The translations under genes were made by a program, and so were the position numbers. The notes beneath the pieces are model-generated. The model had not been told where the DNA came from and searched no databases. It saw only the letters and a list, made by a program, of their open reading frames with translations. From Rhodospirillaceae bacterium (GTDB lineage: Bacteria > Pseudomonadota > Gammaproteobacteria > Steroidobacterales > Rariloculaceae): a stretch of 64,000 bases of DNA. Positions 14,535 to 24,556 of this stretch are shown piece by piece; the stretch's first letter is position 1, and every line of letters starts with the position of its first letter. The DNA lies in contig JAHEKF010000008.1 in NCBI GenBank assembly GCA_024638465.1, forward strand, positions 4,549-68,548, in the 5' to 3' direction.

Positions 14535-15197
14535 TCATTGCATATAAGAACTTACAGCAAACTTCACCAGCTGCGCGGGTGTCTGCAGATTGAGCTTTTT
14601 CTTGATCCGCTGGCGATGCGATTCCACGGTCTTGACACTCAGGTTCAGGGTCTCCGCCACTTCGCGAGTCGTCCTGCCCTGGCCGATCAGATTCAACACC
14701 TGCAACTCCCGATTCGAGAGTCGCTCGATAGGATCGACCGTTGTACCGCGAGCCTCGCCGGAGAGCCGCTCGATCATGACCGAGCCCAGCGCCTCGCTGA
14801 CATAGACGCCGCCTGCCAGCACGCGGCGTAAAGCAACCAGAAGCTGGTCCGCCGCGGCCTGCTTCATGATGTATCCGTTGGCACCCGCGCTGAGAAGCCG
14901 CTCTGCGTACATGCTCTCGTCGTGCATGGACAGCACCAGCACTGGCAACTGGCGGGTTTCCATACGAATACGCTTCAGGAGCTCCATTCCGTCGCTGTCG
15001 GGGAGCGACAGGTCCAGAATGACAACATCCGGCCTGGCACTCTCGAGCACATCCAGCGCTTCCTCGACGCTCGCAGCGTCGCCGCCGACCTCGAGGTCGC
15101 TCTCGGCATCAATGAGCTGGCTCAGGCCCTGTCGGACGATCGGGTGATCGTCCACGATTAGAACGCTTCTGGTCCGCATTGCTGTCCCGTTCGCCAT
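14535..15197 (-). CDS. NarL/LuxR-family response regulator
   Basis: VDDHPIVRQGL, ILDLSLP, LSNRELQVL...KTVESHR helix-turn-helix. Confidence 0.93.
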   Translation of the reverse strand: MANGTAMRTRSVLIVDDHPIVRQGLSQLIDAESDLEVGGDAASVEEALDVLESARPDVVILDLSLPDSDGMELLKRIRMETRQLPVLVLSMHDESMYAERLLSAGANGYIMKQAAADQLLVALRRVLAGGVYVSEALGSVMIERLSGEARGTTVDPIERLSNRELQVLNLIGQGRTTREVAETLNLSVKTVESHRQRIKKKLNLQTPAQLVKFAVSSYMQ

Positions 15198-15322: not shown

Positions 15323-17188
15323 TCACCAATGGAGCCGGAGCGCGACTTCCAGGATTTCTGCAGCGTAGTCGTCAAACATGTCCTCTACATAGTCGACGTC
15401 ACGGTAAGCGAACTCCAGCGCATAGTCATCCGTCAGGCGGAGATTTACGAAGGCGAAGAAATCGTCCCGATCGAGCTCGAAGCTACCATCATTTTCGTAA
15501 CTTCGAATGCTACCGCCAATAGTAACGATATCGTTGGCAGTCCAGCGTATCGAAGCGTCCATGAAGCTCGAATCAGCCGCATAACGTATGAGAAACCTGT
15601 CCTGACGGAAACCTGCCGAGACGAGCTGATCTATGCTTCGCTCAGTATCCACCGAAGTGTAGCCAGCCGCTAATTGCAGTCGTTCATTCCGATATGACAG
15701 GCGAATGGCAGTCTGTGCAGTGTCCGATGCCCACCCGGAGTTGCCGTTTTCCACGTCAATCTGATTGTGAGTTCCAGTTAGGGATAATCCGTTGTCCCAG
15801 CGATGCCGAAGACTGAGCTTGTAGCGCCGATTATCCGTCGCTGATGCGAGCGCGAGAGGATTATCGATGCTGTTGTCTTCTATGCTCCCACTCAGCTCCA
15901 GTCCTCGCTCGTTTCTGTAGAGGGCGCGCGCGAAGAAGCCGTCCCGGTCCGTCTCGACTCGGTCCATCCTCTGGTCCGTTCCCGAGGAGCGGAATCCCAA
16001 GGACTCGCGTTCCTCGTTCGAAACGCCGACGCTGAAGACGAGGTTCGTGCGAGCCGCAAACTCGACCCCGATCTCGAGGCCGTCTGTGTCGATATTCCAT
16101 GCGCCCGCGCCGCCGTCGGGGCCGAAGGACAATAATCCGCGCTGATCGAGCGAACTGCTGCGAACGCCGCCGACCAACCGCATTCTTTCGTTGACGTTGA
16201 ACCTGAAATCAACTTCATCGAAGTCGAGATCCCGTCCGATCTCAGCGCCGCCGGAGACGTCTGTCACGAATGACGCGCCTGTGAAACCGGTTCCCTCGGA
16301 ATTCTCGCTAGCGCTCATGTCCAGATCGAGATCCTCACGCCGCAGGGCGGCACGAAGCTGAAAACGCATCGTGGGGTTCGCAATCACGCGGACCAGATGA
16401 GCCCGACTATCGAAATCGTACGACTGATCGAGGAAATAAAACTGTAGATCTGCGGGATCGAGCGGATTCGTACCAGCCGAGGCTCCGGGCAGGAATATCT
16501 CGTTGGTGTTTTCGAATTCCCTGATCTCTTCCTGGAACACGACCGTCACCTTGTCCCACGAATGCTGAATACCGGCAGTCAGCGCGTTTAGCGACTCGTC
16601 AATTGGCCGATCCAGCTCGAACTCATCGCGCTGTATATCCAGTGTAGTAGTGCTGTCTCCGGAACGAGTCTGCCTTTCGAGACCAAACGAGAGCTTCGTA
16701 TCGGGAGACAAGTCGAGAGCGAGCGAGGCCGTATCTCGAACGCGCTCGAAATCAAAATGATGAAAATCGCCGCCTGTAACGGAATTGATACTGGCAAGTT
16801 CCGCTGGAACGAGTGTGTCCTCATAGAAATATTCGGAACGTCGATGATCGACCTTCAGAGAATAGGCGCCATACTTCCGAACGGACAAAGCGACCGATTC
16901 GTTCGGATCCCCGCCGAGATTCCTGGCACTTAGGTCGACACGGTCGACGATGGAATCGGAGTCTCGGCGCGGAGCATAATGCAGGTTGAGATCGAAGACA
17001 CGAACACCATCGTCCAGATTCACGTCTTCCCGGTATTTGGTCACCGCTCCGTCAACGTCTACGTTGCGAGCCCCAAGCGACACGCTACCCGTCAAAGGCG
17101 ACTCGCCCACCGCCTGAGCGAAACCAGGAAAGGGTTCGGCGAGCAACACCACTACGATCGGGTACGCAACCTGAAGTACGCGCTTCAT
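15323..17188 (-). CDS. mtrB: MtrB/PioB/MtoB-like decaheme-associated outer-membrane porin
   Basis: About 620 aa, signal peptide, KYREDVNL near the N-terminus, many amphipathic strands, aromatic C-terminus (LRLHW). ATG overlaps the decaheme gene stop. Confidence 0.8.
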   Translation of the reverse strand: MKRVLQVAYPIVVVLLAEPFPGFAQAVGESPLTGSVSLGARNVDVDGAVTKYREDVNLDDGVRVFDLNLHYAPRRDSDSIVDRVDLSARNLGGDPNESVALSVRKYGAYSLKVDHRRSEYFYEDTLVPAELASINSVTGGDFHHFDFERVRDTASLALDLSPDTKLSFGLERQTRSGDSTTTLDIQRDEFELDRPIDESLNALTAGIQHSWDKVTVVFQEEIREFENTNEIFLPGASAGTNPLDPADLQFYFLDQSYDFDSRAHLVRVIANPTMRFQLRAALRREDLDLDMSASENSEGTGFTGASFVTDVSGGAEIGRDLDFDEVDFRFNVNERMRLVGGVRSSSLDQRGLLSFGPDGGAGAWNIDTDGLEIGVEFAARTNLVFSVGVSNEERESLGFRSSGTDQRMDRVETDRDGFFARALYRNERGLELSGSIEDNSIDNPLALASATDNRRYKLSLRHRWDNGLSLTGTHNQIDVENGNSGWASDTAQTAIRLSYRNERLQLAAGYTSVDTERSIDQLVSAGFRQDRFLIRYAADSSFMDASIRWTANDIVTIGGSIRSYENDGSFELDRDDFFAFVNLRLTDDYALEFAYRDVDYVEDMFDDYAAEILEVALRLHW

Positions 17189-18123
17189 CGCAGAAACACA
17201 GGATCGAGATTGGAACCGTGTATCGTTACATGGCAATTGACGCATTGCGTGTCGAGACCGAACCGCGGTGGCGCGACCGGATTGAATCCCGAATGAAACT
17301 GCGGAACCTCGGCATGACAGCTGTAACAGAGTTCCGCAACGCGCTGGTGCGTGAGCATGTGGCGATTCGGCGAACCATGCGGGCTATGACAAGCCGTGCA
17401 GCCGTCAACTCGCGATGCAGCGTGTTCGAAAACGAAAGGACCGCCTTTGTCGCTGTGGCAACCCGCGCATTGCTCCTGCCTGAATCCACCGAGAAGCGAG
17501 AAACTCTCGCGAGAATGCGGATCATGACAGGAGGTACACTCGAGTACGCCTTCGGTCAGGCGATGGCGCTCGTTGAACGCGAAATCGGATGCGGTCCCGG
17601 CGTGACAGTCTACGCACAAAGCCGAGCTTCCGGAGAAGCCGAGCATGTCCCGAGACTGCATCGACAGCCGCAATAGCGACGCGACTGACTCGTCGGCGCT
17701 GTGCTGGCTGTGACAGCTGGCGCAGGTGAGTCCCGCCAGCGAGTGTTCGCTGCTTTCGAACTCGGGATGCGTATCACCGTGACACGATAGGCACGTCGCG
17801 TTCTGGGCGGTTGCTGGCTCTTCGCGAAACGCGAAGATATTACCGAGTCCGCCACCGGCGCCGATATGATCATCCGCATCGACATGGCAGTTCAGACACA
17901 CAAGAGAATTCCCGGTTTGTTCCTGCCACTCGACGGTATCGAGAAGATCGTGTGGGTTGCGCACGGTGGTCTCGAACTTGTCTCGGTGGCAAGCTGTACA
18001 TAGCGCCGTCGTCCGATCAACGCCCGGCTGCGCAGCAGCAGTCCCGCTGAGCAACAGGATACCGGCAGCAATCCAGATTGAACCAAGAAGGCGAATTACA
18101 GAAGCAGTGTTTTTGATCATCAC
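17185..18123 (-). CDS. mtrA: Decaheme c-type cytochrome, MtrA/DmsE/MtoA/PioA family
   Basis: Ten CxxCH motifs (CTACH, CLNCH, CLSCH, CASCH, CVDCH, CTSCH, CAGCH, CTACH, CYSCH, CVNCH), GPFVFEH, terminal IHGSN, signal peptide. Confidence 0.93.
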   Translation of the reverse strand: MMIKNTASVIRLLGSIWIAAGILLLSGTAAAQPGVDRTTALCTACHRDKFETTVRNPHDLLDTVEWQEQTGNSLVCLNCHVDADDHIGAGGGLGNIFAFREEPATAQNATCLSCHGDTHPEFESSEHSLAGLTCASCHSQHSADESVASLLRLSMQSRDMLGFSGSSALCVDCHAGTASDFAFNERHRLTEGVLECTSCHDPHSRESFSLLGGFRQEQCAGCHSDKGGPFVFEHAASRVDGCTACHSPHGSPNRHMLTHQRVAELCYSCHAEVPQFHSGFNPVAPPRFGLDTQCVNCHVTIHGSNLDPVFLR

Positions 18124-18213
18124 TATTTCGAATACTCTCGACCGCGGCAGCTATACGACATCGGTAGATGTGCGTATATATATAAGCTCGCGGCTGTCGA
18201 AGTCTCTGATGCT
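18124..18213. promoter_or_regulatory. Divergent promoter region shared by mtrAB and the nqr-like operon
   Basis: Only 90 bp between opposing starts; contains the palindromic AT tract TATATATATA (18175-18184) in a GC-rich background. Confidence 0.5.
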
Positions 18214-19227
18214 GTGAAAGATCCGCTGCGCCAGTACTTCGTCGCTTCGTTGCCTGCCGCCTTGGCGGGCGCCTGGATCCTTGGCGATCGCCTTCCACCC
18301 GAGTCTGCTGAAACCGCTGCCATCTGGCAACTCGCCCTGCTCGATCGACTGCAGATCCCTCTCGGGACACTCCCGAACTCTCTCGCGAACCTGGCGCTCG
18401 GAGCGAGCTTTCTGATACCGCTGCTGCTCACGGTTGTCCTGGTGAGCCGAATCTGGGCCGGGATCTTCGCGCGCGTCCGCAACCGTCCCCTGGACCCGGC
18501 CTGGTTCTTGTCCGCCTGGCTCTACTCATTACTAATACCAGCCACATTACCGCTGCATTACGCCGCGATCGGCTACAGCTTCGGCGCGATCTTCGGCTGC
18601 TATGTCTTCGGCGGGACCGGGCGTTATATCGTCAATCCCGCGTTGCTCGGAGTCGCCTTCCTCTCGATCTCGTATCCCGACCTCCTTGCGCACGACCGCT
18701 ACCTGCCCGGATCGGACGCCTTGTCTTCGTGGGCTTTTGTCGCGACCGAAGGAGTCGAGACAGCCGTATCCACCGGGGTTAGTTGGGTCGCGCTGTTTTT
18801 CGGTAGCGAGACGGGCGTCCTCGGTACCACCTCGGCGCTCGCCTCGCTGCTCGGAGCGGTCTACCTGATCGCCCGTAAGATCGCTTCCATAGGTATCGTA
18901 GCCGGCGCGCTGGTCGCAATTCTCATAACCGGCGAATTGATCAGCGAGATCCCCTGGCAGTGGCACCTGGCGCTGGGAAATTTCGCCTTCATCCTGGCCT
19001 TCATCGCGACGGACCCGACTACGAGGCCGACTACGACTGGCGGCTGCTGGGCCTATGGCGCGCTATTCGGTGTCCTGATCATTGTCCTGCGCATGGCCGA
19101 TCCCAATAACCCGGAAGCCAGCGTACCCGCCCTGATGCTCGCGAGTCTGTGTGTTCCGCTGATCGATTACATCGCCGACGCGGCAGCACCGCGCTCAAAG
19201 GCGCCCGAGGCTATCGGTCGTGACTGA
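18214..19227 (+). CDS. nqrB: Divergent NqrB-like membrane subunit (N-terminally truncated, FMN-site Thr absent)
   Basis: VFGGTGRYIVNPAL, PWQWHLALG.FAF, ATDP, PLID. Only 337 aa; PGSDALSSW stands where SGATALSQW is expected. Confidence 0.85.
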   Translation: MKDPLRQYFVASLPAALAGAWILGDRLPPESAETAAIWQLALLDRLQIPLGTLPNSLANLALGASFLIPLLLTVVLVSRIWAGIFARVRNRPLDPAWFLSAWLYSLLIPATLPLHYAAIGYSFGAIFGCYVFGGTGRYIVNPALLGVAFLSISYPDLLAHDRYLPGSDALSSWAFVATEGVETAVSTGVSWVALFFGSETGVLGTTSALASLLGAVYLIARKIASIGIVAGALVAILITGELISEIPWQWHLALGNFAFILAFIATDPTTRPTTTGGCWAYGALFGVLIIVLRMADPNNPEASVPALMLASLCVPLIDYIADAAAPRSKAPEAIGRD

Positions 19228-19993
19228 GCGCGAATCCGTTGCCAGAACGCTCGGCGTTGCCGCCATCGTGGCGGTTTTCTGCTCACTAATGGTTTCATTG
19301 GCGGTGCTCTGGCTTCGCCCGATCCAGCTCGCCTATCTGTCTATAGAGCGAAACCGTGCCGTCCTGGAGGCATCGGGCCTGATCGAGCCCGCAACCGAGC
19401 TCACCGAGCAACAGATCGTCGATCGCTTCCTCGGTCTCGATACCCGAATCGTGGATCTCGATAGCGGCACGTTCTCCGATGCGGTTTCGACGACCAGCTT
19501 CGACTTCAGGGCAGCGATCAATGATCCTGACCTGACCAGACCGATTCAGGACGAATTGGACATTGCAAACCTCGGCCGCCGCCCTGTCTACTTGCCCGCT
19601 TATCTCCTGCGTAATGGTTCCACCATCGAGCAAATCGTGCTGCCAATCTATGGTCAGGGAATGTGGGCGACGATTCACGGCTTCATCAGCCTGAGAGCAG
19701 ACTTCGCGACGGTTGAAGGAGTTGCGTTCTATGAACATGGAGAGACGCCGGGCATAGGAGACCGGTTCCTCAACCCCGAGTGGCTTGCTCAGTGGCGAGG
19801 ACAACCTGCGTACGATGAGAATGAACGGGTCGCTTTCCGAATCGGCGCCGACGGAGGGCGCCCTGCGGGGATCGACGCAATCACTGGTGCGACTGTCACG
19901 ACATCGGCTATCGAAGATCTGGTTCGATACTGGCTCGGCGATGACGGTTTCGGTCCGTTCCTGGCCTACATGCGACGGGAGGCACCGCAATGA
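19220..19993 (+). CDS. nqrC: NqrC-like FMN-binding subunit
   Basis: N-terminal TM, LPIYGQGMW, FYEHGETPGIG, intact flavinylation motif IDAITGATVT. Confidence 0.92.
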   Translation: MTERESVARTLGVAAIVAVFCSLMVSLAVLWLRPIQLAYLSIERNRAVLEASGLIEPATELTEQQIVDRFLGLDTRIVDLDSGTFSDAVSTTSFDFRAAINDPDLTRPIQDELDIANLGRRPVYLPAYLLRNGSTIEQIVLPIYGQGMWATIHGFISLRADFATVEGVAFYEHGETPGIGDRFLNPEWLAQWRGQPAYDENERVAFRIGADGGRPAGIDAITGATVTTSAIEDLVRYWLGDDGFGPFLAYMRREAPQ

Positions 19994-20667
19994 TCCAACG
20001 CCTCATCGCAACCTCGCGTAACACGCTGCTCGCGCCGTTGCTCGACAACAACCCGATAACGCTTCAGGTGCTGGGCCTGTGCTCCGCTCTCGCCGTAACC
20101 AGTTCCCTGCGGCCGGCCATCTTCATGAGTGTAGCGGTCATTTCCGTGCTCGTCTTCGCCAACGTTACCGTGAGCCTGCTCCGCCATGTGATTCCGCAGA
20201 GCATCAGGTTGATCATCGAAGTCACGTTGATCGCCTCCGCCGTCATTGTCGTCGACGAAGTGCTGAAGGCATTCGTTCCCGATGTAGCGGCAATCCTGTC
20301 CGTGTTCGTCGGACTCATCATCACGAACTGTATCGTTCTGGCACGCGTTGAAAGTTTCGCGATGCATCATGGCGTTTGGGCGAGCCTCCTGGATGCGCTG
20401 GGAAACGGTCTCGGCTACGCCTGGATCCTGTTGCTGGTCGGAGCTATCCGCGAGCTTCTCGGCGCGGGATCGCTGCTCGGGCAAGAGATTCTGCCGCTCG
20501 CTGAAAGTGGCGGCTGGTTTGAGCCGAACCAGCTGATGCTACTCACGCCGAGCGCGTTCTTTCTGCTGGCATTGCTCGTCTGGACGATTCGCTCGCTGCG
20601 TCCGGTGCAGCGGTCTCAGTCTGATCAGATACGAAGCGACAATCCTCCCTCCGGCGCCGCGCCATGA
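19990..20667 (+). CDS. nqrD: NqrD subunit
   Basis: [18 protein letters not shown] and [12 protein letters not shown] (both FeS cysteines present). Confidence 0.93.
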
Positions 20668-21275
20668 CTGGCGATCTGGTCATCATCGCGTTCCGCGCGA
20701 TCTTCATTGAGAATCTGGCGCTGAACTTCCTGCTCGGTGTCTGCACATACATCGCCGTCTCTCAGCGCGTCGCGACCGCGCTCGGCCTCGGAATGGCCGT
20801 GACGGTAGTACAGACGATTACTGTCCCGGTCAACAATCTGATCTACCGAAACCTGCTCGAGCCGGAAGCGCTTCGATGGGCGGGTGTCGTAGGCCTGGAC
20901 CTTTCGTTTCTGCGATTCATTACCTTCATCGGTGTCATCGCTGCGGGTGTCCAGATACTCGAACTGACACTCGATCGCTACTTTCCACGCCTTCAGCATT
21001 CGCTCGGCGTCTATCTGCCACTCCTGACCGTCAACTGCGCCATCCTCGGCGGGTCTTTGTTCATGGTGCAGCGCGATTACAGCTTTTCGGAAAGTGTGGC
21101 GTACGGGTTTGGAAGCGGCGCCGGGTGGGCTCTCGCAATCGTGCTGTTCGCAACTATCAGGGAACGAATCGACGAGAGCGAGGTTCCCGAAGGTCTGCGC
21201 GGACTCGGTCTCGCATTCGTCGTCACCGGAATTCTGGCTCTGGGCTTCGCAGGGCTCAGAGGTCTCGAGTTCTAG
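20664..21275 (+). CDS. nqrE: NqrE subunit
   Basis: [19 protein letters not shown] and [13 protein letters not shown] (both FeS cysteines present). Confidence 0.93.
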
Positions 21276-21289
21276 AGCGCAGGCCTGAC

Positions 21290-22513
21290 ATGTTGCTCGA
21301 GATAGTGGTTCCGACGGCAGTATTCACGGCGATCGTGCTCGTTTTGTCGGCGATCGTGCTTCTTGCCCGCAAGCGGCTCGAGCCAAGCGGGCCGGCGAAG
21401 ATAGAAGTCAACGGCGAACGCGTCATCAACACGGAAGCGGGACGCAGGCTGCTTTGGGCGCTCGCCGACAACGGTATCTACCTGCCGGCAGCATGCGGTG
21501 GTCGCGGCACCTGTGGCCAGTGCCGGGTCACAGTCAGGTCCGGCGGTGGTCCCTCTCTTCCGACTGAAGCGCTGCACATAGGTGCGGAGGAGCAAGCGAA
21601 GGGAGCACGCCTCGCTTGCGCTGTCCGGATTCGTGACGACATGAAGATCACGGTGCCGGCTTCAATTCTCGATGTCCGCCAATGGTCGTGTGAGGTCGTA
21701 TCGACGCGGAACGTCTCGACTTTCATAAAGGAACTCGTACTCAGGCCTTCCGAGCCTGACCCAATGCGATTCGAGGCGGGTGCCTACGTCGTGGTCGAGG
21801 CACCGCCCCATCACGTCAGTTTCCGCGATCTTGATATAGGCGATCAGTATCTCGAAGACTGGCGTCAGTCGGATCTTCTCGAACTCGAATCCGTCGTCGA
21901 GACCTCCACTCTCCGTGCCTACTCCCTGGCGAATCCGCCACAACAATACGATCGGTTGGTGTTGCTCGTTCGAGTCGCTACGCCTCCCGCGACTGCTCCG
22001 CCAGGCACACCACCCGGGCAGGCCTCTTCGTATCTCTTCAGCGTCGGCGAGGGTGACCGGCTCGCAGTCTCTGGCCCGTTCGGGCAGTTTCGGGCTCGAG
22101 AGAGCGACAACGAAATGATATTCATCGCTGGTGGCGTTGGCATAGCGCCGATACGGTCGATCGTTCTGGATCAGCTGTCGCAAGGGTCGCGCCGCAAGAT
22201 GAGCCTCTGGTACGGTGCGCGGGACAGAAAAGATCTTTGTTACGTCGACGATTTCGTGGAAGCCGAAGGGCAACATGATAACTTCGAGCTACACATCGCA
22301 CTGTCGGCGCCTCGTGGTGACGACAAGCAAAGCTATCAAGAGGGATTCGTTCATCTACTGCTACGTGATAACTACCTCAGTACGCACCCGGCACCCGGGG
22401 ATGTGGAATACTATCTCTGCGGCCCTCCGCTCATGAGCGCCTCCGTCATAGAAATGCTCCAGCAGCTCGGAGTCGATCGCAGTCAAATACTATTCGACGA
22501 TTTTGGTGAATGA
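21290..22513 (+). CDS. nqrF: NqrF NADH-oxidising FAD/[2Fe-2S] subunit
   Basis: N-terminal TM, ACGGRGTCGQC...RLAC, RAYS, GGVGIAP, YYLCGPP, FDDFG. ATG at 21290. Confidence 0.94.
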   Translation: MLLEIVVPTAVFTAIVLVLSAIVLLARKRLEPSGPAKIEVNGERVINTEAGRRLLWALADNGIYLPAACGGRGTCGQCRVTVRSGGGPSLPTEALHIGAEEQAKGARLACAVRIRDDMKITVPASILDVRQWSCEVVSTRNVSTFIKELVLRPSEPDPMRFEAGAYVVVEAPPHHVSFRDLDIGDQYLEDWRQSDLLELESVVETSTLRAYSLANPPQQYDRLVLLVRVATPPATAPPGTPPGQASSYLFSVGEGDRLAVSGPFGQFRARESDNEMIFIAGGVGIAPIRSIVLDQLSQGSRRKMSLWYGARDRKDLCYVDDFVEAEGQHDNFELHIALSAPRGDDKQSYQEGFVHLLLRDNYLSTHPAPGDVEYYLCGPPLMSASVIEMLQQLGVDRSQILFDDFGE

Positions 22514-22643: not shown

Positions 22644-23060
22644 ATGAGCATTGCTCTGCGAGTGCGGGATTACATGACGACCGAACTTAAGACGATCACG
22701 CCGCACACCGATATTACTCTGGCTTTACAAATCCTGATCACCAATGACATTTCCGGCGTACTAGTGGTCGACGATTCGGGGACGCTGGTCGGGATCCTCA
22801 CCGAGCGAGACTGCATAGCGACGGCCTCGAGTGCCGGCTATTACGATGAGCTTGGCGGTCCAGCGTCTGAGTTCATGAGCGCTACTGTCGAAACCGTCGC
22901 ACCCGACGAGAATCTGGTCGACATCGCCATTCGGATGACCAATTCACGCTATCGCCGGTTCCCCGTGCTCGAAGACGGGAAGCTGGTCGGGCTCTTGAGC
23001 CGCCGTGACGTACTCCGTGCGCTCGGCAGCGGTTCATGGTTCGCTAAGAAGAACAACTGA
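22644..23060 (+). CDS. CBS-domain pair protein
   Basis: VRDYMT...LVGILTERD...RFPVLEDGKLVGLLSRRDV; GGAG ribosome-binding site before ATG 22644. Confidence 0.9.
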   Translation: MSIALRVRDYMTTELKTITPHTDITLALQILITNDISGVLVVDDSGTLVGILTERDCIATASSAGYYDELGGPASEFMSATVETVAPDENLVDIAIRMTNSRYRRFPVLEDGKLVGLLSRRDVLRALGSGSWFAKKNN

Positions 23061-23083: not shown

Positions 23084-24556
23084 TTAGAACGACACGTCCC
23101 ATTGAAGCCGAAGCCGGTTCTCAGAGTCGTCGAGACCGAGCAGGTTGTCGTCGAGCGTCAGCCGGGACAGATCGACCGTAATCTTGTTGTTGTGACCGTT
23201 AAAGAACCAGTTCGCTCCTAACGTCAGTTCTCTGCGATTGTTCTCTAAAGCTCGATTGACAGCGTTGGGCTCGTCCACCCGCGCGTAACGCACGGCGAAT
23301 TCCAGTGGGGCCGGGACGCTCGGAATCAGATGGTGGAAAAAGTACCCGGCCTGCACATACCCACCCGTCAGCTCGTACTTGCTGTTGTCGGACCGGTCTC
23401 GAATCGTCTTCTCATGGTACTCCTGCTGGATCGAAAGCCCTCGATATTTGAAGGCAAACTCCTGAACCGTCTGGTCTGTCTTGAATTGATCTGCGGCGGC
23501 GGTCGCGGGAGATTCGAATCCATCGAGATTGCCGCAGCCCGAAGAGGACCAGCGCGTACAGCTGCCCGTATTAGTCATGGTTGCGAGAGCAAGACTTCCG
23601 GTCGGAAGCTCTGTGTACTCGACATCGGTCTGCCGCCAGGACAGATCACGACCCATGAAATTCCACTGCAGACGCCCCATGTACATCAGGTCGTCGCTGT
23701 TGTTACGGACGCCTCTGCCTTCGCCGTTGAACGCACCCGCCCAGTAGCGAAGATCCGCGCGCGTGCCGTTAAATGCTCGACCTCGCAGCTGAAAACCGAC
23801 CTGGCGATCAATGGTGAACACACGATTCACGATCGAGCGCTCAACGAATTGCTGGCGCCCGGATGAATCGACACGTTCCCGGTTCAGATCGATTTTCCAC
23901 TGACCTACTCGAAACCCGCCCCAGCTCCACTTGGCGATATCGATTCGCCAGTCTATGACCCGGGAGCTCGCGGACGCACTGCTGTCGTCAACGTCGCGCG
24001 TCGGTTGGAGATCGACTTCGAAGTAGTATCGCAGCCAGGGCTGATAGCCATGGCCGCCGATCTTCATGCGTAACCTGCGTGCTTCGAGCGTAGTCTCGTC
24101 ACCCGAAGAGAAGGCGGAGAGTTGCCGGGGATCAGAATCCAACGGCGTCGTTGCGCGCAACTGAGCCCGCCACTGCAACTCGGTTCTCCAGTTGCCGTCA
24201 CGAGACTGCAGGCGAAACCCGGTACTCTCGTAGCTGCCATCGAGCAACAGGTCATCGTCGCCGTCGACCGCATCGTTGGAATCCGCTTCACTCGATTCGG
24301 CTTCCGGTGTTGTCGCGTCCTGGAGAATATCCTGGCTCGTCAGCGTCTCCGACTCGAGCAGTTCGTCATACTGCTGTTGTGAAATCGCGCCGTTGCTCAG
24401 AAGAACATCCAGAAGTTCCTTATCCGCAGCGTGAGCGCTACCGAACAACGACAGGAAGACAACAGCTGCGAACACTGGTCTGGAAACCGACAATTCTGTG
24501 AAAATGTTAATGGCTCTGGCTCCGGTTTTCGGCTCGTCTGAGTCTCGGCCGGCCAT
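23084..24556 (-). CDS. Phosphate-selective porin, OprO/OprP family (true start possibly TTG 24493)
   Basis: Signal peptide ending AHA, ARRLRMKIGG, GQWK, ERSIV, LGANWFFNGHNNK, terminal Phe; Pho box upstream. Confidence 0.8.
   Translation of the reverse strand: MAGRDSDEPKTGARAINIFTELSVSRPVFAAVVFLSLFGSAHAADKELLDVLLSNGAISQQQYDELLESETLTSQDILQDATTPEAESSEADSNDAVDGDDDLLLDGSYESTGFRLQSRDGNWRTELQWRAQLRATTPLDSDPRQLSAFSSGDETTLEARRLRMKIGGHGYQPWLRYYFEVDLQPTRDVDDSSASASSRVIDWRIDIAKWSWGGFRVGQWKIDLNRERVDSSGRQQFVERSIVNRVFTIDRQVGFQLRGRAFNGTRADLRYWAGAFNGEGRGVRNNSDDLMYMGRLQWNFMGRDLSWRQTDVEYTELPTGSLALATMTNTGSCTRWSSSGCGNLDGFESPATAAADQFKTDQTVQEFAFKYRGLSIQQEYHEKTIRDRSDNSKYELTGGYVQAGYFFHHLIPSVPAPLEFAVRYARVDEPNAVNRALENNRRELTLGANWFFNGHNNKITVDLSRLTLDDNLLGLDDSENRLRLQWDVSF

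Follow-up and report, generated by a model that had tools for sequence, protein, structure and literature searches.

A selected NQR variant without NqrA and without the flavinylation threonine of NqrB, encoded beside an MtrAB-like gene pair

The closest described relative of the system considered here is the NADH:quinone oxidoreductase that translocates Na+ (Na+-NQR) in Vibrio cholerae (PDB 7xk3, 8a1t). A review of the Rnf/NQR enzymes calls the cofactors of their membrane subunits strictly conserved (PMC12174285). Loss of a flavin from NqrB is known from the V. cholerae T236Y mutant (PDB 9ud3/9ud4; PMC12901251), an engineered single change in a complete six-subunit quinone reductase, in which NqrB carries no covalent flavin mononucleotide (FMN) and the complex assembles with NqrC docked at NqrB. 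A conserved flavinylation threonine is likewise missing from two-subunit NQR/RNF-like systems, found mainly in Actinobacteria and the candidate phyla radiation, in which an NqrB-like domain is fused to an NAD-binding domain, NqrD/E and NqrF are absent, and electrons have been proposed to pass one way, from NAD(P)H to an FMN domain outside the cytosol (Meheust 2021, PMC8238504; Huang 2024, bioRxiv 10.1101/2024.03.13.584918). Genetic coupling of a member of the superfamily to a multihaem c-type cytochrome is described for Methanosarcina acetivorans, where the cytochrome, MmcA, passes electrons outward from Rnf; that system is archaeal, takes its electrons from ferredoxin, keeps the RnfD flavins and six core subunits, and has no outer-membrane barrel (PMC12174285). 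Here we describe a variant nqr operon on a 64,000-nucleotide stretch of contig JAHEKF010000008.1 (assembly GCA_024638465.1), hereafter the window, from a genome deposited as Rhodospirillaceae bacterium and placed by GTDB in the Gammaproteobacteria (Steroidobacterales, Rariloculaceae).

The operon encodes a real, selected variant of NQR. Its NqrC to NqrF subunits are orthologous to those of the canonical enzyme and keep their cofactor residues, and its NqrB-like subunit, designated NqrB', has the same fold. The differences lie elsewhere: NqrA is missing, so that the system is not a six-subunit Na+-NQR (NqrABCDEF); NqrB' has lost the FMN threonine with its S/T-G-A-T motif, G140/G141, E144, E157, E274 and some 53 N-terminal residues; downstream of nqrF stands a CBS-pair gene in place of apbE/nqrM; and genes for a decahaem cytochrome and a beta-barrel adjoin the operon. 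In comparison with the T236Y mutant the loss of the threonine is natural and fixed, and the quinone site and NqrA are gone as well. The locus falls outside the two-subunit group, as NqrB' lacks the PF00175 NAD-binding domain and NqrD, NqrE and NqrF are separate and complete. Extracellular electron conduits of the MtrCAB, MtoAB and PioAB type are fed by quinol dehydrogenases such as CymA. Genes for a decahaem MtrA-like cytochrome and a large MtrB-like barrel in A-then-B order appear to be common to these conduits (PDB 6r2q) and to the present locus, whereas the inner-membrane machine adjoining them here is an NADH-oxidising NQR derivative, not a quinol oxidase; the NapC/NirT/CymA family (PF03264) gave no match in the window's own genome (G000) or in two genomes with close relatives (G001, G004). 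No NqrA-less NQR, no threonine-less NqrB in a five-subunit NQR and no pairing of nqr with mtrAB-like genes was found described in full-text searches of the literature; supplementary gene tables could mention such cases.

The nqrB' gene (18214..19227, + strand) is the first of the operon, starts with GTG and is intact, encoding an NqrB-like membrane subunit of 337 aa and overlapping nqrC by 8 nt. Its product matches PF03116 (NQR2_RnfD_RnfE) at 179.5 bits against a gathering threshold of 27.7, which is its entire domain content, and misses the NqrB equivalog cut-offs (NF003756, 223.7 vs 414; TIGR01937, 182.8 vs 349.9). An AlphaFold2 (AF2) model of NqrB' (pLDDT 76) aligns to V. cholerae NqrB with TMq 0.83-0.87. 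Residues were mapped on V. cholerae NqrB (PDB chain 7xk3_B) with phmmer (E 9e-51), NqrB' 35-321 corresponding to chain residues 97-400. In this alignment the FMN threonine T236 is D168 (GATALSQW vs GSDALSSW; codon 18715-18717) and the S/T-G-A-T flavinylation motif is absent from its position. VGGFWE reads VSRIWA (G140 to S78, G141 to R79, E144 to A82), IGEVS reads LGTTS (E274 to T205), and N156, E157, T162 and N200 are replaced by D94, P95, S100 and Y138, respectively. Retained are the ATDP motif with D346 (D267), PLFD as PLID with D397 (D318), N203 (N141) and the phenylalanine pair F338 and F342 (F259, F263). At the N terminus, 53 residues of canonical NqrBs, including the D52 region, precede residue 1 of NqrB' in a MAFFT alignment, and the NCBIfam NqrB models align only from model position 59-61 on. 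This truncation is real: the stretch between the GTG and an in-frame stop 45 codons upstream, which falls within the divergent cytochrome gene, contains no other start codon. Across the window's clade no conserved Ser or Thr occurs at or beside the T236 column. As alternative flavinylation sites, S167, S171 and S172 were rejected, none having a G-A-[ST] context and S167 not being conserved. The initial annotation of this DNA, an alignment by eye, had already placed an Asp at 18715-18717 over Thr236, the start of the protein near the equivalent of residue 50, both altered motifs, the retained ATDP and PLxD, and an intact open reading frame (ORF) overlapping nqrC, all of which agree with the formal alignment, as does the lack of an equivalent flavinylated Ser/Thr. 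Its description of the core acidic residues as kept was too broad: this is true of D346 and D397, but not of E144, E157 and E274, all of them replaced, nor of the missing D52 region.

These changes fall on sites with assigned roles. In V. cholerae, G141 packs against the bound quinone at the NqrB rim and the N-terminal helices AH-I and AH-II close over it (Hau 2023, PMC10643135), and in NqrB' the two glycines are Ser and Arg and the N-terminal ~53 residues are absent, so that the quinone site is not conserved. The V. cholerae G141A enzyme can be purified and is inhibitor-resistant (PMC12901251). Small residues are thus tolerated in place of G141, and a strong case for a blocked quinone site can be made only from the arginine seen in the window's clade. 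Riboflavin binding presents a mixed picture: of the four ligands, D346 (Hau 2023, PMC10643135; Kishikawa 2022, PMC9325719) and N203 are invariant or nearly so, N200 is replaced by Y, and T162 is not conserved. The Na+ path has been placed in NqrB, lined by D52, E157 and E273/4 (Hau 2023, PMC10643135), while a 2026 study by cryo-electron microscopy and molecular dynamics has Na+ translocation driven by the NqrD/E 2Fe-2S cluster and not through NqrB (PMC12901251). None of the acidic path residues is kept in NqrB', unlike the F338/F342 pair; E157 is P95, with the invariant D94 one position before it. The initial annotation had suggested that NqrB' serves as a scaffold or ion path. A scaffold role would still be our reading, but the ion-path role, which leans on D346 and D397, is weak: E144, E157 and E274 are gone, and D346 binds riboflavin. 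It gains little under either Na+ model, since pumping would reside in NqrD/E in the one and the D52/E157/E273/4 path has been lost in the other.

The remainder of the operon is canonical in its cofactor sites. The nqrC gene (19220..19993, + strand) encodes the periplasmic FMN subunit, retains D-A-I-T-G-A-T, scores 166 bits against the TIGR01938 cut-off of 144 and aligns to 7xk3_C. The products of nqrD (19990..20667, +) and nqrE (20664..21275, +) score above their NCBIfam cut-offs and each keeps both 2Fe-2S cysteines (equivalents of C29 and C112, and of C26 and C120, respectively). The NADH/FAD/2Fe-2S subunit is encoded by nqrF (21290..22513, +; ATG at 21290), which scored 479 bits against a TIGR01941 cut-off of 295 in searches that used 21293 as the first base, and its product aligns over its full length with V. 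cholerae NqrF, the C-x5-C-x2-C...C cluster motif being shared. The flavinylation motif of NqrC, the four cysteines of NqrD/E and the 2Fe-2S, FAD and NAD domains of NqrF are thus all present. Two ApbE flavin transferases are encoded in the window's own genome; a search of it for NqrM (PF04400) gave nothing but was uninformative, the control genomes giving nothing either. The operon is followed by a gene for a CBS-pair protein (22644..23060, +; likely ATG 22644, with the ORF open from TTG 22503). In the variant family, 59/59 loci whose sequence extends far enough beyond nqrF have a CBS-pair gene 3' of it. This conserved seventh gene sits where V. cholerae has apbE/nqrM; its product might act in nucleotide sensing or stand in for NqrA.

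No nqrA lies upstream of nqrB' in the window. In the window's own genome, which is 88% complete, the best match to the NqrA model TIGR01936 reaches 19.3 bits and falls in RnfC, and the model has zero matches in G001, a closed 4.7-Mb chromosome holding the related locus L010, and in G004, which also carries a close relative. NqrA is present in three genomes carrying more distant variants. In V. cholerae NqrA is anchored on the NqrB segment F34-L54 and is also bound by an acidic patch of NqrF (E368, E371, D372, E397 and E399; Kishikawa 2022, PMC9325719). The equivalent of F34-L54 is wholly missing from NqrB', and the NqrF patch holds a mean of 2.0/5 acidic residues in 6 NqrA-less loci versus 3.9/5 in 47 loci with NqrA. 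At the E371 column, E is found in 46/47 loci with NqrA and in 1/6 without.

Divergent from nqrB' is a gene for a periplasmic decahaem cytochrome c, putatively of the MtrA/DmsE type (17185..18123, - strand; 312 aa, ten CXXCH motifs, signal peptide). Its only PDB match is 6r2q chain A of the Mtr complex (E 1.6e-24), although the molecule label printed for that chain is odd. It overlaps by 61 nt the gene for an MtrB-like outer-membrane beta-barrel (15323..17245, -; 640 aa). The AF2 model of the latter, built from a 9-row alignment, is a large beta-barrel (pLDDT 75.7) whose best PDB match is MtrB, 6r2q_B (E 5e-18, TM score 0.66), with TonB-dependent receptors next at ~0.42-0.46. The 90 bp between the cytochrome gene and nqrB' (18124..18213) hold a conserved block, shared by the 7 closest loci, around GGTAGATGTGCGTATATAT and CTGTCGAAGTCTC, which may be a common promoter or operator; a promoter/terminator scan of 17900-18400, including the sigma-70 consensus, found nothing.

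Comparison of 47 loci from species genomes and 80 from metagenomes suggests how this arrangement arose. Loci were classed by BLAST with the window proteins and the NqrA sequences of L052-L055, excluding the RnfD-like outlier L051 and L059, which is the L005 contig (n=125). In type I, the window's kind, barrel and decahaem genes diverge from nqrB' and nqrA is absent (13 loci plus the window; with the near-copies L005/L006/L058 and L062/L064, about 10 distinct sequences). In the 4 type II loci the same pair diverges from nqrA'-nqrB', and in 89 type III loci NqrA is present and the pair absent; the other 19, mostly contig ends, were unclassifiable or had neither neighbour. The spacer of the divergent pairing is 50-115 bp, and the pairing persists down to 44-51% NqrB' identity (L008, L010). 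All variants share N200 to Y and the loss of E274 and SGAT, and the window's clade is part of a larger variant NQR family of about 120 loci, without SGAT and always with the CBS gene. A quick IQ-TREE phylogeny of 52 rows was rooted on two RnfD sequences, leaving out near-set proteins under 290 aa, L059 and most of type III (17 sampled). In it the variant family forms one group (SH-aLRT 94) beside canonical NqrB, with RnfD as outgroup; given this position and its NqrF partner, NqrB' is not an Rnf subunit. All NqrA-less proteins form a single clade of 14 rows (SH-aLRT 96) with the type II loci branching just outside, which fits acquisition of the cytochrome neighbours before loss of nqrA, root and order being unproven.

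Three different multihaem modules recur beside the variant family. Besides the decahaem/barrel pair, L081:2131-5503 has a long-branch NqrA-less nqrB' next to genes for MtrC/OmcA-like (746 aa) and MtrA-like (350 aa) decahaem cytochromes, and one type III subclade, marked by Y-D-x-P-T/S in the NqrB loop, has a gene for a hexahaem NrfB-like cytochrome (~210 aa) ending just before nqrA in 33/37 informative loci. Members that keep NqrA have G-Y-D-Q-P-T, with a Thr that may or may not be flavinylated, in place of S-G-A-T (L013-L050, L072-L137; e.g., L024:7793-8515, L018:3367-3999). Among them are cultivated isolates of Lentisalinibacter (L033, L037, L042), whose variant operon includes nqrA and whose NqrB has no SGAT; in at least one Lentisalinibacter genome (G002) a second NqrA, canonical in score, is encoded elsewhere.

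The changes in NqrB' are conserved and under selection. Screening 5.8 billion proteins gave 217 relatives at E<=1e-10. Within the best 120 of these 217, roughly the first 77 measure 320-370 aa at 40-80% identity and lack S/T-G-A-T and in most cases the N-terminal extension; relatives of 400-415 aa further down carry VGGxWE, SGATxL and GETS. The same changes occur in at least 13 further contigs, and this recurrence among homologues places the substitution pattern beyond chance. New residues have become fixed among 29 aligned members: D94, W97 and W173 do not vary at all, and S78, W81 and A82 hardly do. In some shorter relatives of ~261 aa (L065:2489-3274, P0049, P0053, P0056, P0060) the whole FMN-site periplasmic loop of canonical NqrB is missing, a reduction that goes further still. 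Pairwise Nei-Gojobori dN/dS, calculated for pairs at dS 0.6-1.2 because more divergent pairs were saturated, was 0.17-0.29 for nqrB', 0.12-0.22 for nqrC, 0.10-0.17 for nqrD, 0.05-0.09 for nqrE and 0.11-0.16 for nqrF. NqrB' is the least constrained of the five subunits, yet clearly under purifying selection. The view of the initial annotation that the losses were selective, not random decay, is upheld by these ratios, by the fixation of the changes in the clade and by the intact cofactor residues of NqrC-F; the range for nqrB' resembles that for nqrC.

The window's own genome, for which four DNA runs from sediment metagenomes of one study are listed, encodes complex I and three haem-copper oxidases, and no RuBisCO large subunit was detected in it at 88% completeness. 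Such gene content suggests an aerobic or facultative heterotroph that would hardly need to drive NAD+ reduction uphill. Apart from the decahaem gene, the genome holds a single ORF with four or more CXXCH motifs (G000:C18:2-1672, L140), which has six such motifs fused to tetratricopeptide repeats and is cut by the contig end. A separate rnfC-D-G-E cluster lies on another contig (G000:C127, L001); its RnfD keeps the flavinylation threonine context, placing a normal Rnf beside the stripped NQR. In a same-order sample of 201 genomes, copies besides the window were found only in G013 and G141 (47% identity), and the cassette was not found in three same-genus genomes, a sparse occurrence that marks it as accessory and patchy. 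If the binning of L008 in the Rhodospirillales is right, the whole cassette would have moved between classes.

The initial annotation was silent on the absence of nqrA and on the divergent decahaem and MtrB-like neighbours, and with these taken into account the likely function differs from the one it gave. In the canonical enzyme electrons pass outward from NADH through the FAD and 2Fe-2S of NqrF and the membrane 2Fe-2S of NqrD/E to the covalent FMN of periplasmic NqrC, and return through NqrB FMN and riboflavin to quinone, with NqrA docked on the NqrB N terminus. The outbound half appears intact in the variant and the return half dismantled. On the simplest reading, NqrC's FMN would be the terminal cofactor, since all that follows it is missing or altered and all that precedes it is conserved. 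We propose, with a probability of about one half, that electrons run from NADH through NqrF and NqrD/E to the NqrC FMN and, in the periplasm, leave or enter by way of the decahaem cytochrome, bypassing the quinone, with NqrB' serving as a docking scaffold. The NqrC FMN and the MtrA-like cytochrome would exchange electrons in the periplasm, and the cytochrome, threaded through the MtrB-like barrel, would link cytoplasmic NADH to extracellular acceptors or donors. Another inner-membrane partner for the conduit is not obvious, given the PF03264 result in three genomes and the single other multihaem ORF. The T236Y complex (PMC12901251) and the Methanosarcina cytochrome (PMC12174285) offer precedents. 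The forward direction, NADH oxidation towards external acceptors, is favoured by the heterotroph-like gene content and by the MtrC-bearing relative L081; the window's own genome has no MtrC-type protein, which would fit uptake from Fe(II) too, and the sequence does not decide between them. Ion pumping would persist if it resides in NqrD/E, as proposed in PMC12901251. Still more tentatively, and at somewhat less than even odds, the system may be an ion-pumping NADH:multihaem-cytochrome oxidoreductase derived from Na+-NQR, an undescribed class of respiratory enzyme that would have shed NqrA, the NqrB flavin and the quinone pocket and in which NADH is wired to an MtrAB-type conduit with no recourse to the quinone pool. 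A suggestion of similar standing is that it would be the extreme case within a broader "cytochrome-associated NQR" family that has gone unrecognised, one subclade of which has the hexahaem cytochrome.

The cytochrome-coupled, quinone-independent function is plausible on the grounds of synteny and residue logic, and several points weigh against it. All of the evidence is comparative; dS values near 1 approach saturation, and the tree was made by a quick method. The decahaem protein scores just below the cut-off of the DmsE family model TIGR03508 (185.4 vs 192.2 bits), and no Pfam or NCBIfam MtrB_PioB sequence model matches the barrel. NqrC is anchored in the inner membrane, presumably beyond the reach of an MtrA seated in an outer-membrane barrel, so that a periplasmic carrier may be needed. 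The retention of D346 and N203 means that a flavin may still sit in NqrB', leaving an inward path possible. Two large type III subclades have a neighbouring cytochrome gene in 0/17 cases, and the near-clade loci L009 (7.2 kb upstream), L065, L066 and L071 have none in reach. These cytochrome-free loci would suit a different arrangement, in which the NqrC FMN passes electrons to a different acceptor in the periplasm (for example a small cytochrome, free flavin or a soluble reductase), and the cytochrome and barrel are a frequent but functionally separate neighbour; the partial solvent exposure of the periplasmic NqrC FMN (PMC12174285) points the same way. We nevertheless regard this as unlikely, since the divergent pairing with its short spacer persists to 44-51% NqrB' identity, is found also in metagenome-assembled genomes labelled as another class (L008, Rhodospirillales), and is only one of three multihaem modules that recur beside the family.

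Of the remaining explanations, one retains the proposed wiring and reverses it, with electrons from extracellular Fe(II), minerals or a cathode entering through the MtrAB-like conduit to NqrC and the Na+ or proton gradient driving NAD+ reduction. The window shows no MtrC-type surface cytochrome, no second decahaem ORF was found in the window's own genome, and a conduit without MtrC presumably resembles the MtoAB/PioAB modules of iron oxidisers. One ion per electron, however, may not cover the potential gap. The lack of a detectable RuBisCO large subunit, a complement of complex I and three oxidases that suggests a heterotroph, and the pairing of the variant in L081 with an MtrC/OmcA-like outer cytochrome typical of reducers likewise make reversed flow improbable, even if Rnf/NQR-type machines are reversible in principle (PMC12174285). 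The complex might also still be an NADH:quinone oxidoreductase, with a non-covalent flavin in NqrB', a quinone site remodelled for, e.g., a different quinone, and no need of NqrA. This would account for the conservation of D346, N203, D397 and the F338/F342 pair; NqrA is moreover a cofactor-free subunit without assigned function (PMC12174285), and a non-covalent flavin site has been proposed for the threonine-less two-subunit systems (bioRxiv 10.1101/2024.03.13.584918). The arginine at G141, the complete loss of the region that closes over the quinone, the tyrosine at N200 with T162 not conserved, and the presence of complex I in the same genome make it quite unlikely. Decay of a formerly canonical nqr operon, with the present genes as its remnant, is very improbable and already contradicted: the loss of nqrA, NqrB scores far under the equivalog cut-offs and a patchy distribution that misses three same-genus genomes could be read in this way, but all five ORFs are intact with coupled overlaps, dN/dS is well under 1 in every gene, the architecture is the same at 44-80% identity, and the replacement residues are themselves conserved.

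Two flanking genes were considered as well. A LuxR-type response regulator at 14535-15197 was dropped as a part of the system, weak matches being found in just 2 loci. Convergent to the CBS gene lies a gene for a 490-aa protein of the Porin_O_P family (23084-24556, -), whose match to ExtI, the porin from a gene cluster for selenite/tellurite reduction, is weak and below threshold (36.5 bits; cut-off 150).

A natural, selected NQR that lacks the quinone site and NqrA, and is predicted to lack the NqrB flavin, contradicts the description of these cofactors as strictly conserved (PMC12174285). It is a natural experiment on the purpose of NqrA and NqrB, and on whether NqrD/E (PMC12901251) or NqrB (PMC10643135) is the seat of ion pumping. 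Should the link to the cytochrome be true, sediment Gammaproteobacteria would be able to connect NADH with extracellular minerals independently of quinone, possibly conserving energy, and extracellular electron-transfer pathways would have a new inner-membrane entry point.

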